Source of the DNA: a virus
Lineage: Duplodnaviria > Heunggongvirae > Uroviricota > Caudoviricetes
Direction: 5' to 3' (one strand)
Length of the DNA: 39,258 nt
IMG/VR virus record: IMGVR_UViG_2519899560_000023
Part shown: one piece after another, positions 1,841 through 37,139 of the stretch
Layout of the letters: every line of letters starts with the position of its first letter
Position numbering within the stretch: the first letter of the stretch is position 1
Program-made: the position numbers and the translations under genes
The notes under the pieces: model-generated
What the model saw: only the letters and a program-made list of their open reading frames with translations
What the model was told of the DNA's origin: nothing
Databases searched by the model: none

Positions 1841-3931
1841 ATGTATGTCATTGCAAAAGAACTGATTGGCGCGCCCGGAATGCCTGCTACAACAAAAGGT
1901 ATTCGCCAGGCATTACAACGTTACGTACAAGGGAAAAGCTGTTGTTCCCGTCGTCGCTCAGGCTCTAAAGCAACTGAATACAGCATCGACTGTTTACCTG
2001 AAGTGACGCAGCAGGCATTACGTGAACGTTATGCCCTGCAACTGATGACGCAAAAAGCCGATGAATCACCGGCTCCGGTGGTGACAAAGGCCAGACGCTC
2101 ATCTGACGTGGTTGATGCGGTGGAGGCATATCGCGGATCACCACAACTGATGGTCGAACGCCTCAATGCCCTGACTGAAAACCAGCGCCAGGTGGCTGAT
2201 GCACGAATCGCGATCGTCAGCGAAGTGATGAAAGTCGCGCAACAACCCGGTTTCAGCTGCGCGAAGGCTATCCGGTTTATCGTTGACAACCTGGCACGTT
2301 CACAGCTGGACGAGCGCATTGTGGCAATGGTTGAGACGGCGAACGCCAAAAAGGGAAACAGCCGTGCGTTGAGTGAAATCACGCTGAAGCGATGGATTGC
2401 GGCCTTTAACAAGGCACAGAACGCCGCTGAACGCCTGCTTTTACTGGCACCGGGTAAACGCCAGGAAATAAAAGCCGAAGATATTAACTGGCTGCCCGAA
2501 TTTCTGGCGCAGTATCGCCAGTCAAACGGCCGACCAATGACCGAGGCTTACGAGGATTTTGTCGCTGAATGGCAGCACCGGCACGCTGATGAGCCTTATA
2601 TGCTCGATATCATGCCGTCTTATGACACCATTCGCCGCGCAATGAAGAAACTGCCGGAAGTGGTGAAACAAAAAGGCCGGGTGACCGGCAGTGAATACCG
2701 CCAGCTTGAGGGATTCACGCGCCGCGACTGGTCCAGAATGCCGGTGAATTATGTCTGGATTGGTGACGGTCACGGCATGAAGCTGAAATGCGCACACCCG
2801 GTTCACGGTCGGCCATTTGCACCGGAAGTGACCTTTGTTATCGACGGTGGCACGCGCTTTGTGGTGGGCTGGAGCCTTGACCTGGCTGAAAATGTTTTCG
2901 CCGTAGCCGGTGCCATACAGCACGGCATTCGCCATCACGGCAAACCGTTTCTGTATTACTCGGATAACGGCTCCGGGGAAACCGCCGACATCCTGGATAA
3001 GGAGGTTGTGGGGATACTGCCGCGACTGGGGATTAATCACCCGACCGGGATTGCCGGTAATCCGCAGGGACGAGGCATTATCGAACGGCTTAACCGCACA
3101 TTACCGATGCGCATAGCCCGTAAATACCGCACCTATTTCGGGAAAGGTGCAGATCGCGAGACGTTACGCAAAACCAACCGCGATTTACGCTCGGCATTTA
3201 CTGCCCTGCAACAGGGCAAACGGCTGAACGCCCGGCAGCAGTCAGCGATGCGTGATTTACCGTCCTGGTCTGAACTGATTGATGCCATTCGTGATGGTGT
3301 TGAGTGGTACAACAACCGGCCGCACGATGAATTACCGGTGAAGCCGAACGGCAAGCATTACAGCCCGGCGGAGTTCAGAAAAAAACGCCTGGCGGAAGAG
3401 GACACGGAAATTGAATGGCTGTCCGATGTGGAATTGCGGGACATGTTCCGGCCGATGGTGGAACGCCCTGTAAGACGCTGTGAAATACGCTGGCTGAATA
3501 ATATTTACTACGCGCCCGAGCTGCGTGATGAGCATGGCCGCAAGGTGCTTATCAGCTATGACATTCATGATGCCGAACGAATTACCGTACGTCGCCTGGA
3601 TGGCAGCGTGATTTGCGAGGCGGTATGGGACGGTAATAAACGCGAAGCCTTCCCGGTTAGCGCGGAATACTACAAACAGCAGCAACGCCTTAAAGGCATG
3701 CGTAAACGCGCAGAGGAAAAAATCCGTGATGCCGAGGATGAGGTTGTCAACGTGCTGGAGCACAAGCCGCAGGAGCCCTGGCTGGAAAACATCTATCGCC
3801 CGGTAGGTAATACGGTGGCCGTTCAGCAACCTGCCATTGATGATGAGCCTGATGAAGAATACGAGCGCAATTTCCAGCGGGGATTGCAGTTGCTCGAAGC
3901 GAAATTAAAAGAAAATGACCCGCTGGCCTGA
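1841..3931 (+). CDS. Mu A-like DDE transposase
   Basis: 696 aa, size and position of MuA; ATG 2 nt after ner stop. Confidence 0.85.
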   Translation: MYVIAKELIGAPGMPATTKGIRQALQRYVQGKSCCSRRRSGSKATEYSIDCLPEVTQQALRERYALQLMTQKADESPAPVVTKARRSSDVVDAVEAYRGSPQLMVERLNALTENQRQVADARIAIVSEVMKVAQQPGFSCAKAIRFIVDNLARSQLDERIVAMVETANAKKGNSRALSEITLKRWIAAFNKAQNAAERLLLLAPGKRQEIKAEDINWLPEFLAQYRQSNGRPMTEAYEDFVAEWQHRHADEPYMLDIMPSYDTIRRAMKKLPEVVKQKGRVTGSEYRQLEGFTRRDWSRMPVNYVWIGDGHGMKLKCAHPVHGRPFAPEVTFVIDGGTRFVVGWSLDLAENVFAVAGAIQHGIRHHGKPFLYYSDNGSGETADILDKEVVGILPRLGINHPTGIAGNPQGRGIIERLNRTLPMRIARKYRTYFGKGADRETLRKTNRDLRSAFTALQQGKRLNARQQSAMRDLPSWSELIDAIRDGVEWYNNRPHDELPVKPNGKHYSPAEFRKKRLAEEDTEIEWLSDVELRDMFRPMVERPVRRCEIRWLNNIYYAPELRDEHGRKVLISYDIHDAERITVRRLDGSVICEAVWDGNKREAFPVSAEYYKQQQRLKGMRKRAEEKIRDAEDEVVNVLEHKPQEPWLENIYRPVGNTVAVQQPAIDDEPDEEYERNFQRGLQLLEAKLKENDPLA

Positions 3932-21173: not shown

Positions 21174-21572
21174 ATGAATGAACATCACACTGTGGCAGCA
21201 ACAGATGATTCAGGTCTTCAGGTCAGTGGTGACAATTCTGTCACGGTGCTGGCAGAAGTGCGTTGCAGTCGTTCGGCGTTTCGTCGTGCGGGGTTCCTGT
21301 TCACGCGTGGACGTCAGCAGGTTGAGGTCACCCCGGAGCAGCTTGCCCGACTGGAGGAGGAGCCATGCCTCACTGTGCGAATACTACAGACGTCTGCTGA
21401 TGATGCGGGGAGCGTGGCGGGTGTGGTTCATGCAGTGGCCGGTACAGATTTAGCCGAAGCCGAAGCCGAAGCCGAAGCCGAAGCCGAAGCCGAAGCCGAA
21501 GCCGAAGCCGAAGCCGGACAGGATGCTCCCCGGAAAAAGACCGGTAACAAAGCGGAACAGGCCCGTGCATGA
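21174..21572 (+). CDS. head-region protein (Mu gp35 position) with (Ala-Glu)10 repeat
   Basis: 132 aa; GGAGGG SD; stop overlaps next start (ATGA). Confidence 0.6.
   Translation: MNEHHTVAATDDSGLQVSGDNSVTVLAEVRCSRSAFRRAGFLFTRGRQQVEVTPEQLARLEEEPCLTVRILQTSADDAGSVAGVVHAVAGTDLAEAEAEAEAEAEAEAEAEAEAGQDAPRKKTGNKAEQARA
21453..21518 (+). repeat. perfect tandem hexanucleotide (GCCGAA)x10 plus one GCCGGA, in frame
   Basis: Counted directly; frame anchored to the downstream stop at 21570-21572. Confidence 0.95.
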
Positions 21573-31917: not shown

Positions 31918-32468
31918 CCCTGACCCCGCATCAGCGCGCCCTGTTGCAGTTGCTGCCTGACGGGCTGGCATGGGATAAGCGGCCGTCATCCGTTCTTGCG
32001 GCTTTGTGCCTGGGCCTCAGTCATTCCACGGAGCGTGTTTCCTGGACCGGTAACCAGATGCTGGCAGAACGTTTTCCTGATTCATCCCGTCTGCTGCTGG
32101 AAGACTGGGAGCGTTATCTGGGGTTACCGGAATGTGATATGACCGGCGCAACCATTCAGGAGCGTCAGCGTTATGCCGGGAATAAATACCGGATGAAACC
32201 CTCTCTTAACCGTGAATTTTATATCCGGTTTGCGGCAGAGTTTGGTTATGAAATAGATATTCAGCCATCACCGGATTCACAGTGGGTCAGTATTGTCACG
32301 ATTAACAGTGAAACCGGCTACCGGAATATGAATGTGCTGGATGATATTCTCACGCCGCTGCGTATTTATGAAGGCGGTGCGCTGGAATGTATTCTGAACC
32401 GTTATAAGCCTGCATGGCAGACGTTTATTTACGTATATGCAAACAGTCACGAAGAGGAGAATATTTAA
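31908..32468 (+). CDS. tail protein (Mu gp48-like)
   Basis: 186 aa; precedes tail fibre gene. Confidence 0.7.
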   Translation: MAVTLTPHQRALLQLLPDGLAWDKRPSSVLAALCLGLSHSTERVSWTGNQMLAERFPDSSRLLLEDWERYLGLPECDMTGATIQERQRYAGNKYRMKPSLNREFYIRFAAEFGYEIDIQPSPDSQWVSIVTINSETGYRNMNVLDDILTPLRIYEGGALECILNRYKPAWQTFIYVYANSHEEENI

Positions 32469-33379
32469 TGTTCCATGTTGATAATAATTCCGGCGTGGCG
32501 AATATGCCTGCGCTGGCACCGGCGCAGAGTAATACCACCACCTGGTTTACCGAAGGTGACGGACAAAAAGGTATCAGCTGGATTGGTCAGGACTGGCTGA
32601 ATATTCTCCAGGCCGAACTGCTGAATATTCTGGCTGAAGCCAGTATTCAGCCGGATAAGGCGCAGTTAAACCAGCTTACGCTGTCCATTAAAGCCATTAT
32701 CGCTGCGAATGCCTTTTCCCGGAAAAACAACCTGAAAGAAATTGCTGATGCCGGTGCGGAAGCCCAGCGTCTTGCCCGTGGTTATCTTGGTCTTGGGGCG
32801 CTTGCCACAAAAAACAGTCTTGGTCCCGGTGACGTTAATGCTCTGGCGAAGGATCAGAACCTTGCCGACCTGGAGAATGCGGGAACCGCCCGTAATAATC
32901 TGGATGTTTACAGCAAAAGCGAAGGTGATAACCGTTACCTGCGCAGGGAGCAGAACGGCGCAGACATTCCGGATAAAGGCGCTTTTATCGATAACGTCGG
33001 TTTACGGGAAACGGTAAATAAGGCTGCTGATGCCCTGCCATCGGGTGGAACCGCCGTGGCAGCAAACAGACTCGCCACCCCAAGAAATATTAATGGTGTT
33101 CCTTTTGACGGAACGCTGGATATCAACATCACGTCAGGAATGACGCAGTCAACCGCAGATGGCCGGTATGTACAGAATGTTCAGCTTGGAGCACAGAGCT
33201 ATCATTCACCCGGAGGCAATGAAATGTCATGGAATTACAGCGCACCTTCCGGTTGTATGCTTTCCGGAATTAACGTGCAGGAAACCGGCTCCCGGTCTGC
33301 GGACAATATCGGTGGGGTCTATTATCGCCCGGTTCAGATTTATATTAATAATGCCTGGAGAACGGTAAGTTCAGTGTAA
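32468..33379 (+). CDS. tail fibre protein S (constant part fused to the currently expressed variable C-terminus)
   Basis: ATG overlapping gp48 stop (TAATG); N-terminus MFHVDNNSGV; C-terminal tip homologous to the inverted cassette at 34015-34377. Confidence 0.8.
   Translation: MFHVDNNSGVANMPALAPAQSNTTTWFTEGDGQKGISWIGQDWLNILQAELLNILAEASIQPDKAQLNQLTLSIKAIIAANAFSRKNNLKEIADAGAEAQRLARGYLGLGALATKNSLGPGDVNALAKDQNLADLENAGTARNNLDVYSKSEGDNRYLRREQNGADIPDKGAFIDNVGLRETVNKAADALPSGGTAVAANRLATPRNINGVPFDGTLDINITSGMTQSTADGRYVQNVQLGAQSYHSPGGNEMSWNYSAPSGCMLSGINVQETGSRSADNIGGVYYRPVQIYINNAWRTVSSV
32985..33010. other. gix/hix-like recombination site (left), inside S
   Basis: TTATCGATAACGTCGGTTTACGGGAA, close to the remembered Mu gix; inverted homology with the right end begins at GGTTTACGGGA. 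Confidence 0.65.
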
Positions 33380-34372
33380 ACCACAGAAAAGGGTGCTGAA
33401 TGCACCCTCTGAATTATTCCGGTTTTTCCGGCCAGGGAATCGCCTGGTAATGCCCCTCACTGGCAATATCATTAAAGTGCATTTCTTTAAGCTGTCGGAT
33501 ATACGCCATCCAGCGCGTCAGCTGTAATTTATTTTCATCGCTAATCATGTCCAGTTTTAATTCCGTTTTCCAGTCATCCACAGTTTCGTTGGCTTCCTGG
33601 AGCAGCGATGAGCGGCGCTTTTCAGCAACCGTCTTCCAGTTTACCGGCACCTTTGATATCAGGCCATCAGAAAACTGCCAGTTACCGTCAATATTCACAC
33701 CTTCCGGCAGTTCGTCCACTTCAACAACAGTAAAACCTGCCGGATATAAAGCAGAGACATCTTCAGCAACAGAGCAGATAATACCCGTTACAGGCGAAAT
33801 ACAGAGTTTGTATTTCTTTGTGAAAAGCGGGATAGATTCATAAAAATCCCTTCCGTCCTCACTCTGGAAATACTGAACATCCTCACCATAGGGTTTGTGT
33901 TCCGGGTAATATCGTTTTACGTTAATAAGCTCCATTATTTCACCTTGTTTTTGTTGAAAAGACAAAATCATCATATATTTATTCAGATAATCTGTTTTTT
34001 GAACTACTGCACTTTTATGCGCTGGAAGCTGTTTTCCACGAACCATCTATCAGAAACTGAACAGGTCGATAATATGCGGTTACCGTTGCATTACCATCAC
34101 CAGCGACATCAAGCCCTGTAAGTACGCATCCGTCAGGAACCTCAAAAATATTATATTGCATTCCAATCGTTGACCTTGAACCTCTTCGAATGCTTTGAAC
34201 ATAACGTGAGTCAGCCACAGACTGCGTCATCCCCGATGTAATATTTATATCCTGCGTTCCGTCAAATGGGACACCATTAATATTTCTTGGAGTGGCGAGT
34301 TTATTCGCTGCAACAGCCGCTCCGTTCGATGGCAGGGCATTCGCGGCCCTGTTTACAGTATCCCGTAAACCA
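32999..34372. other. invertible tail-fibre segment (G-segment analogue, about 1.4 kb)
   Basis: Bounded by inverted gix-like sites; contains Sv (+), one tail fibre assembly gene (-) and a promoterless alternative S' tip (-); gin adjacent. Confidence 0.7.
33414..33935 (-). CDS. tail fibre assembly protein (U'-like chaperone)
   Basis: ATG at 33933-33935 preceded by AAGGTG; track ORF extends to 34046; about 174 aa. Confidence 0.7.
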   Translation of the reverse strand: MELINVKRYYPEHKPYGEDVQYFQSEDGRDFYESIPLFTKKYKLCISPVTGIICSVAEDVSALYPAGFTVVEVDELPEGVNIDGNWQFSDGLISKVPVNWKTVAEKRRSSLLQEANETVDDWKTELKLDMISDENKLQLTRWMAYIRQLKEMHFNDIASEGHYQAIPWPEKPE

Positions 34373-34377
34373 AGGTT
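34015..34377 (-). CDS. promoterless alternative tail fibre C-terminal cassette (S'v)
   Basis: Minus frame open from stop at 34378-34380 to 34015; translation NLGLRDTVNRAANALPS...GVPFDGTQDINITSGMTQSVADSRYVQ... parallels the S C-terminus. Confidence 0.7.
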   Translation of the reverse strand, partial: NLGLRDTVNRAANALPSNGAAVAANKLATPRNINGVPFDGTQDINITSGMTQSVADSRYVQSIRRGSRSTIGMQYNIFEVPDGCVLTGLDVAGDGNATVTAYYRPVQFLIDGSWKTASSA

Positions 34378-34385
34378 TCAGGGAT
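34360..34385. other. gix/hix-like recombination site (right)
   Basis: ATCCCGTAAACCAAGGTTTCAGGGAT, near-palindromic 26-mer about 55 bp upstream of gin. Confidence 0.65.
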
Positions 34386-34439
34386 GCCGTATATCTGCTT
34401 TAAAAGGCCTTTCCACCTCTTTTTAAGGAAGGTAAATAC

Positions 34440-35000
34440 ATGCTGATTGGCTATATACGCGTATCAACAAATGACCAGAACACAGGTTTACAAAGAAATG
34501 CGCTGGAATGTGCAGGATGTGAGCAGATTTTTGAAGATAAAATGAGTGGTAAAACGACACAGCGGCCGGGACTGAAGCGGGCACTGAAGAAACTAAAACC
34601 CGGTGACACACTGATGGTCTGGAAACTGGACAGGCTGGGGCGCAGTATGCGCCACCTTGTTGCGCTGACAGATGAATTACAGCAACAGGGGATAAATTTT
34701 CGTAGTCTTACTGACAACATTGATACGTCAACCCCCATGGGGCGCTTCTTTTTTCACATAATGGGTGCGCTGGCAGAAATGGAGCGTGAATTAATTGTCG
34801 AACGGACACGGGCTGGTCTTGCAGCTGCCCGTGAAAGGGGACGAACCGGCGGCAGACCCCGTCGTCTCACGCAGGAACAATACGAGCAGGTCGGGCGTTT
34901 ACTGGCCGGGGGTGTCAGTCGAAGACAGGTGGCACTTATTTTTGATATCGGCCTTTCAACCCTTTATCGTTATTATCCTGCGAGCGTTTCGGAAAAATAA
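34440..35000 (+). CDS. gin: serine DNA invertase (Gin/Hin/Cin family)
   Basis: 186 aa; N-terminus MLIGYIRVSTNDQNT with catalytic-Ser context; C-terminal HTH; adjacent to invertible segment. Confidence 0.9.
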   Translation: MLIGYIRVSTNDQNTGLQRNALECAGCEQIFEDKMSGKTTQRPGLKRALKKLKPGDTLMVWKLDRLGRSMRHLVALTDELQQQGINFRSLTDNIDTSTPMGRFFFHIMGALAEMERELIVERTRAGLAAARERGRTGGRPRRLTQEQYEQVGRLLAGGVSRRQVALIFDIGLSTLYRYYPASVSEK

Positions 35001-35099
35001 GACGCTCTCTTTGTTGGGCCTTTACTGAATTAACGCAAAATGGCGTTTATCGGTCTGTGGATATGATAATTCAGTTTATTCAGGAACAGGCTGATTATT

Positions 35100-37139
35100 A
35101 TGACGTCCAAATGGGTTCAACTATCATCAATGCCCGGAAACTTTACTGTTAAAGTTTCCGGTGGTACAGCGGCATTTCTTGAGGCTCCCTTTCCTCCGGC
35201 CGAAACAAAAGGAGGAATGACATTTGCTGACTGTCTCATCAGTTTTAATACACGGGATTGCCTGTGGGTAAGGCCAGTATCCGGTGATCCGAGTGTGGAA
35301 ATTACCGGAGCGGGTATTGGTGCGGTCATTCCGTTAAGTGCTGATGTTGCCGGTACTGCTGAACCGTCAGACTGGGATAATGCTGAAACACATACCCGTC
35401 CGTCAGGAAATGAAACTGCTTCCAGCTCCCCTTCCTGGTATTACGTGGTGGTTCTTGCTGGTCAGTCAAACGGTATGGCTTACGGTGAAGGTCTGCCACT
35501 GCCGGAGACATATGACCGCCCCGAACCGCGTATTATGCAGTTAGCCCGTCGCAGTACAGTCACGCCGGGAGGTAAAGCCTGTCAGTATAACGACATCATT
35601 CTGGCCGACCACTGTCTGCATGATGTGCAGGATATGAGTGGAAAAAATCACCCGAAAGCGGATGTGGCTAAAGGGCAATATGGCACCGTGGGTCAGGGGC
35701 TTCACATTGCCAAAAAACTGCTGCCGTTTATTCCGGCAGATGCGGGGATTCTGCTGGTTCCCTGCTGCCGTGGTGGTTCTGCATTCACGGCGGGTGCTGA
35801 CGGCACGTACAGTGACAGCACGGGTGCTTCAGAGGACTCAGCCCGCTGGGGTGTGGATAAGCCGCTGTATAAGGACTTAATCAGCCGGACAAAAGCGGCA
35901 CTGGCGAAGAACCCGAAAAACCGCCTGCTTGCTGTGGTGTGGATGCAGGGCGAGTTTGATATTGATGCGAAGCCGACGGAGCATTCCGCGCTGTTTCTGG
36001 CGATGGTGGAAAAATTCCGCGCAGACCTGGCTGAACAGGCGGAACAGTGTACCGGTGGCAGTGCTGCTGGCGTTCCGTGGATTTGTGGCGATACCACGTA
36101 TTTCTGGAAACAGAAAAATGAACCGGCATACCAGGCAATCTATGGCGGCTACAAAAACAAAACAGATAAAAACATTCATTTCGTTCCATTAATGACAGAT
36201 GAAAATGACGCGAATGTACCCACCAACAATCCGGCAGAAGACCCGGATATTGAATCCATTGGTTATTACGGCTCAACGTGGCGTAACAGTGCCGCCACCT
36301 GGACATCTGCGGACCGGGCCAGCCATTTCAGTTCATGGGCACGTCGTGGGATTATTTCCGACCGTCTGGCCACGGCAGTTCTGACTCATGCGGGGCGAAC
36401 CACAGTAAAAGCCGATGTTCCATCTTCTGAAACTGAAGCACCAGTGCCGTCACCTTCAGAAACTGAAGCAGTAACCACAACACTGCTGTCTTATCGTGTC
36501 AGTGAGTCAGAAGGAAATCTGAAAGCCCAGGGCTGGGAGCCGGCTGGCGGTAAAGCTGAAATTATCAGTGATGCAGGAGGCACAGGTGGTAAGGCAATGA
36601 AACTGACCAAGGAAACAGGTAAATCATCCTGGTATCTGGATCATGATGCCGGTACTGGTGCTGAACTGCTGAAAAATGGTGGTTTAATCAGTTGTCGTTT
36701 TAAAGTACCTGGCGACCTGGTGGCAAACCAGTATGTCATGGGGCTTTACTGGCCGGTTTCCTCTCTGCCGCAGGGTGTCACCCTGACAGGGGATGCAGGG
36801 AATAATCTGCTGGCATCGTTCTACATCCAGACAGACGCAAAAGACCTGAATGTGATGTACCACAATGCAAAAGTGGCAACAAATAACCAGAAACTGGGAA
36901 CCTTTGGTGCATTTGATAATGAATGGCATACGCTGGCCTTCCGTTTTGCAGGAAATAACAGCCTTCAGGTTATTCCGGTTATTGATGGTCAGGATGGTGC
37001 CGCGTTTACCCTGACGCAGTCACCAGTAGGAACTTTCCCGGTGGACAAACTCCGCGTAACGGATATCACAAAAAATGCAACTTACCCGGTGCTGATTGAC
37101 AGCATTGTGGTGGAAGTGAAAAAAGCGGTAACAGAATAA
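35100..37139 (+). CDS. SGNH/SASA-family carbohydrate O-acetylesterase-like protein (NanS-p-like) with N- and C-terminal extra domains
   Basis: 679 aa; VVLAGQSNGMAYGEG block, then LLVPCCRGGSAF and VVWMQGEFD blocks and DRASHFS; C-terminal about 230 aa beta-rich. Confidence 0.6.
   Translation: MTSKWVQLSSMPGNFTVKVSGGTAAFLEAPFPPAETKGGMTFADCLISFNTRDCLWVRPVSGDPSVEITGAGIGAVIPLSADVAGTAEPSDWDNAETHTRPSGNETASSSPSWYYVVVLAGQSNGMAYGEGLPLPETYDRPEPRIMQLARRSTVTPGGKACQYNDIILADHCLHDVQDMSGKNHPKADVAKGQYGTVGQGLHIAKKLLPFIPADAGILLVPCCRGGSAFTAGADGTYSDSTGASEDSARWGVDKPLYKDLISRTKAALAKNPKNRLLAVVWMQGEFDIDAKPTEHSALFLAMVEKFRADLAEQAEQCTGGSAAGVPWICGDTTYFWKQKNEPAYQAIYGGYKNKTDKNIHFVPLMTDENDANVPTNNPAEDPDIESIGYYGSTWRNSAATWTSADRASHFSSWARRGIISDRLATAVLTHAGRTTVKADVPSSETEAPVPSPSETEAVTTTLLSYRVSESEGNLKAQGWEPAGGKAEIISDAGGTGGKAMKLTKETGKSSWYLDHDAGTGAELLKNGGLISCRFKVPGDLVANQYVMGLYWPVSSLPQGVTLTGDAGNNLLASFYIQTDAKDLNVMYHNAKVATNNQKLGTFGAFDNEWHTLAFRFAGNNSLQVIPVIDGQDGAAFTLTQSPVGTFPVDKLRVTDITKNATYPVLIDSIVVEVKKAVTE

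Follow-up and report, generated by a model that had tools for sequence, protein, structure and literature searches.

Among described DNA inversion systems, the G segment of phage Mu is the closest to the element considered here. In Mu, the serine invertase Gin acts at two 26-bp sites, gixL and gixR, which are identical 26-mers with the core dinucleotide TC, and inversion of the 3-kb segment between them swaps the C-terminus of the tail fibre. The present analysis concerns a 39,258-nucleotide stretch of DNA from a virus (IMG/VR record IMGVR_UViG_2519899560_000023; hereafter the window, meaning the whole stretch), which alignment identifies as an Sp18-type Mu-like prophage, the type having first been described from Escherichia coli O157:H7 Sakai. 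Sp18 has been described as intact, with an invertible host-specificity region and with fibre ends distinct from those of Mu (PMC2669165). The invertible tail-fibre segment of the window shares with the Mu system an invertase of 75% identity, 26-bp crossover sites, the TC core and the swapping of a fibre C-terminus by inversion; its two sites, however, agree at only 5 of 12 positions in their outer halves and differ in their cores, being TC on the left and TT on the right. We consider it likely, from the sequence and from its close relatives, that this copy represents a naturally occurring allele of a Gin-type switch that is locked or inverts very slowly, held in the forward orientation (that of the window) with a 303-residue fibre expressed. 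Core states are given below as left/right, the right core being read in the sense of the left site, so that GA stands for TC, AA for TT, and GAA for TTC.

For the Cin/cix system of phage P1, Iida and Hiestand-Nauer (Cell 1986; Mol Gen Genet 1987) reportedly found that sites with unequal central dinucleotides recombine rarely, and that in the products one dinucleotide occupies both sites. In the Sp18 population, likewise, unequal pairs are seen beside TC/TC and TT/TT, as such "localized conversion" predicts, but the P1 work dealt with laboratory mutants and quasi-sites, whereas the Sp18 alleles segregate in natural prophages and are known from sequences alone. The single-base difference between the cores also resembles the Hin/hix substrate pRJ862, in which one base change in one hix core leads to no ligation in the inverted configuration and to a second rotation (360 degrees) that restores the parental order, where religation occurs (PMC4817059; PMC4513852). 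Hin is a different enzyme, of flagellar phase variation, its wild-type core is AA, and the data were obtained in vitro. The Pin segment of e14 and the Phi1, Phi2 and Phi4 prophage segments of EC958 have 26-bp sites with TC or TT cores at the tips of imperfect inverted repeats within fibre genes, are found in both orientations in cultures, and may have differing outer halves (PMC4134206; PMC4272514); unlike in the window, both cores are equal within each of these pairs (Table 3 of PMC4134206).

Crossover Sites

The two sites are inverted with respect to each other, and each has a 2-bp core flanked by 12-bp halves of imperfect symmetry, as is characteristic of the family:

32985-33010 (+): left crossover site, a gix-like 26-mer inside the fibre reading frame, with core TC at 32997-32998
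34360-34385 (+): right crossover site, a 26-mer with core AA at 34372-34373 (TT in left-site sense)

The left 26-mer is TTATCGATAACG TC GGTTTACGGGAA, and the right one is ATCCCGTAAACC AA GGTTTCAGGGAT, the reverse complement of which is ATCCCTGAAACC TT GGTTTACGGGAT. Re-reading both 26-mers upheld what a first-pass annotation of this DNA had said of the cores, which differ in a single base, C at 32998 against the complement of 34372. Its count of about five shared bases in the outer halves was also correct (5/12), and the inner halves, which it took to be identical, are nearly so, agreeing at 11 of 12 positions and differing in the last base (A versus T). Unlike outer halves are normal in this family, as in EC958 Phi2 (PMC4134206), and constitute no defect. 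The pattern AACSNNGGTTTACGGGA, which spans the inner half together with the centre, is found exactly twice in the 39-kb window, at the two crossover sites and on opposite strands, against a chance expectation of 0.00 in 100 shuffles, and the sites are therefore not chance matches. A weak gix-like match at 638-663, TTGATACCAACG AG GGTTTTAGTGAA, lies just inside the left end of the prophage; it has another core and no partner, and is probably a chance occurrence.

The first-pass annotation had taken the two 26-mers for gix-like sites acted on by a serine invertase, and this assignment stands: a Gin-family gene lies adjacent, identity to Mu gix is 22/26 for the left site and 18/26 for the right one, and the invertase ATG is as far from the right site as it is in Mu. 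The realignment that had been proposed as a check yields no placement with equal cores, because the AAC(C/G)-NN-GGTTT symmetry, common to both sites and Mu gix, fixes the dyad centre. A GG dinucleotide shared by the two sites was considered as a common core and rejected, since it lies off the dyad axis set by that symmetry and by the alignment with Mu gix.

Within the Gin/Hin/Cin/Pin class, to which the element belongs, the Mu G segment is its nearest counterpart. A working switch of this class needs an equal, asymmetric core dinucleotide at both sites for religation after one 180-degree rotation, but in this copy the cores are unequal, TC against TT. In the fibre frame, a change from TC to TT at the left core converts GTC to GTT, both encoding valine; because it is synonymous, the fibre protein places no constraint on it.

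Core State and Orientation in Natural Copies

The window and a flipped sequence built from it were compared with 5,426 complete E. coli genomes, with matches covering at least 80% of the 2.7-kb query being counted. The forward orientation was found in 181 genomes and the flipped one in 23, both at 99-100% identity, with several flipped copies at 99.9%; the flipped genomes annotate a fused fibre coding sequence of 888 nt followed by the assembly gene. Because both orientations occur, segments of this type invert in nature, a statement that applies to the element type.

The core state was read base by base in 35 copies. The forward copies present six states: TC/TC; TT/TT, as in Sakai (RefSeq), whose left core reads TT instead of the window's TC; TC/TT, as in the window, 13E0780 and strain 150; TT/TC, as in strains 113, 95NR1, FRIK804 and 2000-3039; and TT/TTC and TC/TTC, where TTC denotes a right site with a 3-bp spacer and 27 bp overall. 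Only TC/TC and TT/TT were read among flipped copies, all 13 of which have equal cores (11 TC/TC and 2 TT/TT), against 11 of 21 forward copies, the other 10 having unequal cores or the 3-bp spacer. Non-matching pairs are thus tied to one orientation (Fisher p = 0.005, with a similar result after the obvious sister isolates in the census described below are merged). As TC/TC and TT/TT are each seen in both orientations, either core works provided that both sites agree. This pattern is what the idea of a locked pair, put forward in the first-pass annotation, predicts; its proposal that unequal cores make inversion inefficient or locked gains indirect support from the 13 matched flipped copies and from the Hin precedent, and for the window's own copy the lock is something that we infer. 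Three flipped TC/TC copies (L005, L007 and L021) have GAAAACC instead of GAAACC in the right outer half, which restores the AAAACC of the Mu consensus.

A census of the 5,426 genomes was made with junction queries of 61-63 nt that separate an exact match from a one-base difference. At the forward left junction, TC was found in 75 records and TT in 89; at the forward right junction, GA was found in 89, AA in 23 and GAA in 36. The GAA genomes belong to several serotypes (O157:H7, O26, O103 and O145), and every copy found with this right site is forward. Joint counts were obtained by pairing the listed records by their coordinates and are lower bounds or estimates: at least 28 records are TC/TC and about 21 TT/TT; at least two complete genomes (13E0780 and strain 150) are TC/TT; at least 29 records, from several laboratories and serotypes, are TT/TC, of which 22 are sister isolates from one cattle study; and 33 records are TT/TTC and 3 TC/TTC. 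By this census estimate, approximately 45% of forward copies hold a pair that is expected not to recombine.

It is very improbable that the core difference in the window is a sequencing or assembly error that hides a matched pair. A single base is involved, and no complete genome matches positions 32400-35100 perfectly, the best match (4983 bits) having one mismatch, which would suit such an error. However, 13E0780 and strain 150, two independent complete genomes whose diverged backbone shows 28 differences over 2.6 kb, have an identical TC/TT pair, the reciprocal TT/TC pair is represented by the many records just mentioned, and both alleles are common at each site. Because unequal cores recur in independent genomes, an error can be set aside.

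The variation is concentrated at the cores. Among 18 copies with at most 12 differences from the window over approximately 2,570 positions, the two core positions alone are frequently polymorphic, and all four combinations of TC and TT are seen. In the same 2.6-kb alignment, position 32473 has a minor allele in 3 of the 18 copies, and the remaining variable sites are singletons, apart from two variable positions, 35008 and 35011, where the alignment is truncated on the right. On this alignment, the crossover core is a mutational hot spot. Among more distant relatives, with invertases of 73-81% identity, 30 of 31 site pairs are matched, as TC/GA or TT/AA. The sole exception is an IMG/VR sequence (L066, 76% invertase identity) with sites at 1700-1725 and 3404-3429, for which the candidate cores are TT versus TC and the proximal site is tentative.

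Organization of the Segment and the Invertase

The invertible segment extends from 32999 to 34371 (1.37 kb, against 3 kb in Mu), and it and its surroundings contain the following features:

32468-32996 (+): constant N-terminal part (Sc) of the tail-fibre gene, ending at the left core; the same N-terminus is joined to the other C-terminus in flipped genomes
32999-33379 (+): variable C-terminus (Sv) expressed in the forward orientation, from translation and annotation
32993-33174 (no strand): left arm of inverted homology, encoding the conserved start of both alternative C-termini
33388-33410 (-): terminator-like hairpin between convergent reading frames, from a consensus scan only
33414-33935 (-): tail-fibre assembly (chaperone) gene, the single one in the segment (Pfam Caudo_TAP, E = 1.9e-18; annotated as ECs_4990)
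34015-34371 (-): silent, promoterless alternative fibre C-terminus (Sv'), which joins Sc in frame upon a flip
34196-34377 (no strand): right arm of inverted homology, 182 nt, 78% identical to the left arm
34440-35000 (+): intact Gin-family serine DNA invertase gene, 186 residues (Resolvase PF00239, E = 1.4e-51; HTH_7 PF02796, E = 1.7e-14)
34461-34524 (no strand): putative recombinational enhancer with two Fis-like 15-mers, in the 5' part of the invertase gene, from conservation with Mu gin

The open reading frame at 32468-33379 (+), annotated as ECs_4989 "phage tail fiber", encodes the 303-residue fibre. When the segment is flipped in silico, Sc is fused in frame to the other C-terminus with no stop, giving a 295-residue fibre, and the assembly gene then lies behind the fibre gene. 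The inverted homology inside the segment, put at about 150 bp in the first-pass annotation, is present and longer (182 nt at 78%); its longest exact common run is 20 nt, and the crossover sites lie at the tips of the repeat.

Although there are two in-frame alternative C-termini, the segment has one assembly gene, unlike host-range cassettes with one per orientation (Mu G, with two; P1 C; e14 P). This gene is co-oriented with the silent end, so that the fibre expressed in the forward orientation, which is the majority orientation in genomes, has no chaperone gene downstream. A consensus scan for an independent promoter of the chaperone gene in the forward orientation gave nothing above the shuffled expectation. 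The NCBI pipeline annotates a 61-residue "hypothetical protein" at approximately 34241-34426 (+), spanning the right site antisense to the silent end and "frameshifted" in genomes with the GAA allele; this reading frame is probably spurious.

The invertase has the architecture of small serine recombinases, with an N-terminal resolvase domain containing the active-site serine and a C-terminal helix-turn-helix. Its alignment with Mu Gin covers 182 residues (Gin 1-182; E = 2e-91), and the RVSTNDQ motif with the catalytic serine is conserved between the two. An identical protein, WP_000904930.1, is annotated in all E. coli copies fetched except the divergent JNE141411 copy. The first 110 nt of the gene are nearly identical in DNA to Mu gin, and contain two Fis-like 15-mers, at 34461-34475 and 34510-34524, whose distances from the site centre (+95.5 and +144.5) are the same in Mu; the conserved stretch is that in which the Mu enhancer lies, and this conservation suggests that 34461-34524 is a probable recombinational enhancer. 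Switches of this class depend on a cis-acting enhancer within the invertase gene, with two Fis sites and roughly 100 bp away from one crossover site.

Consequences of Unequal Cores

Cleavage by serine invertases leaves a 2-nt 3' overhang at the core of each site; one half of the tetramer then turns through 180 degrees, and religation depends on pairing of the exchanged overhangs. In the window, the Gin-family invertase, presumably with Fis bound to the enhancer inside its own gene, would pair the two 26-bp sites and cut both at the central dinucleotide, and one pair of half-sites would be rotated by 180 degrees. A completed flip would swap the fibre C-terminus at 32999-33379 for the silent one at 34371-34015 and bring the sole chaperone gene into the fibre operon. 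In this copy, however, the overhangs would be TC/GA on the left and TT/AA on the right, and a single rotation would leave them unmatched. Because the exchanged joints would then hold C·A and T·G mispairs, religation would be disfavoured, and a further rotation of the complex, with resealing of the parental arrangement, would be expected. Although its protein parts are intact, the switch would in this way be held in the forward orientation, either locked or orders of magnitude slower.

One might think instead that the mismatch is nearly harmless, with useful inversion proceeding either through RecA acting on the 182-nt arms or by ligation over a single mispair, the T·G wobble. Efficient RecA-dependent exchange in E. 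coli usually needs roughly 23-27 nt, and although the arms are 78% identical, their longest exact run falls short of this, so that inversion by RecA was judged unlikely. As to ligation, some copies have TT at the left and right sites alike, and each of the four combinations is found, which means that some exchange between unequal sites, or its equivalent, has occurred. On the other hand, unequal cores are seen in none of the 13 flipped copies and in 10 of the 21 forward ones, and Hin in vitro cannot ligate across one mismatched core base (PMC4817059). Taken as a whole, we find a nearly harmless mismatch quite unlikely.

Some of these observations nevertheless weigh against reading the window as a locked allele. 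The presence of TT at both sites indicates that exchange across unequal cores, or some other route to the same result, does happen, and "locked" is accordingly not absolute; moreover, ligation over the T·G wobble at one joint might be easier than we have assumed. The association of matched cores with orientation is built on phylogenetically non-independent genomes, including the 22 TT/TC sister isolates, at a locus where forward is already the majority (181 versus 23), and it could partly reflect where the mutations arose. Finally, the enhancer is a putative one, recognized through conservation. The lock that we consider likely is, in addition, probably leaky over evolutionary time, because TT has reached both sites in some copies.

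Origin and Persistence of the Unequal Pairs

The mismatch in the window is one state of a polymorphic core series comprising TC, TT and, at the right site, the 3-bp TTC. The most likely ways for alleles to move between the sites are localized conversion, in which an occasional ligation of mispaired ends is resolved by replication or repair, recombination between co-infecting phages, or both. In localized conversion, replication after a mispaired ligation would give one TC/TC and one TT/TT daughter, and the movement of alleles would regenerate matched, freely inverting pairs of both kinds. With the TTC spacer, the two cuts would lie 3 nt from each other, and recombination should be impossible; speculatively, the spacer may have come from a slip adding T at TC, or from misrepair of an aborted TC × TT exchange.

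A different possibility, which addresses the origin of the alleles and not their effect, is that the unequal pairs are not products of the invertase, having arisen by homologous recombination between TC/TC and TT/TT phages, with the crossover falling in the 1.4 kb that separates the sites, or else from recurrent C-to-T mutation. In favour of this, many genomes carry 2-9 related places, TC/TT and TT/TC are each found on more than one backbone, and the phage is mobile and mixing. This mobility follows from the fact that each copy checked occupies its own insertion site: those in FORC_044, 2-6-2, 2014C-3050 and M7638 are all different, with none at sorM, so that no two of these copies share an insertion event while differing in core state, and Sp18-type phages appear to be actively transposing or infecting. 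(These four insertions lie in or beside ndh, an MFS transporter gene, a secretin gene and another prophage.) The close copies offer little background diversity to recombine, however, their variants in the 2.6-kb alignment being mostly singletons apart from 32473 and the two right-end positions, and neither the first transfer of TT between the sites nor the TTC allele is explained in this way. An origin without the invertase is possible but doubtful.

It has also to be asked whether forward-locked alleles are selected, on the supposition that bet-hedging is lost when one host type is always available and that a site mutation is the only lock that the invertases of other prophages cannot undo. 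At least three non-matching states are frequent, accounting for the share of forward copies estimated in the census, and the invertase protein is 100% conserved in the non-matching copies; furthermore, genomes of Shiga-toxin E. coli (STEC) hold several related systems, whose Gin-family invertases would not complement a site mutation. Against this, the frequencies are inflated by clonal sampling, neutral drift at a synonymous and mutable position fits equally well, and fixation would be odd for an orientation in which the fibre gene lacks a chaperone gene on its own strand. We regard selection for the lock as rather unlikely.

A broader scheme, in which the core is a natural, heritable and reversible "fuse" on fibre switching, is offered here only tentatively, and is in our estimation improbable as it stands. 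In this scheme, rare exchange by the invertase between unequal cores would create the alleles and spread them from one site to the other, as localized conversion in nature, aborted exchanges would leave TTC as the union of TT and TC, and forward locks would be favoured in STEC, since cross-reacting invertases cannot override a site mutation.

Placement of the Window

Positions 614-39258 of the window align with Sakai Sp18 at 99.95% identity, with 6 substitutions across 38.6 kb, the left core base 32998 being one of them. The window is not the Sakai copy itself, an identification that was rejected because its left 613 nt are a different host flank. This flank (1-613) adjoins a ccdA-like antitoxin locus typical of O111/O26-type strains, and the left end of the prophage lies at about 614-619; the host-prophage junction at this end was matched in none of the 5,426 complete genomes.

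The sole indel between the two prophages is in a perfect array of the hexanucleotide AGCCGA, with 10.8 copies at 21452-21516 within a head-region gene, which is 2 units (12 nt) longer in the window. Between the invertase gene and com/mom, at 35100-37139 (+), there is a 679-residue open reading frame with sialate O-acetylesterase (SASA) and DUF6645 domains; Mu has nothing at this position, and the frame may represent a cargo or host-surface-modifying gene.

Conclusion and Perspectives

The switch itself and the rule of equal cores are already known, and what seems to be new is the polymorphism of the core in circulating STEC prophages. No report of core polymorphism in Sp18-type prophages was found in the open-access literature searched, and such population-wide polymorphism appears to be unreported.

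The Sp18-type prophages provide a natural test set for two laboratory results, namely the need for matching cores and localized conversion. An intact invertase together with recognizable sites does not amount to an invertible segment, and annotation and inversion-calling tools should compare the cores. For the phage, changes at the core would offer a simple evolutionary route by which host-range bet-hedging may be turned off and on again.

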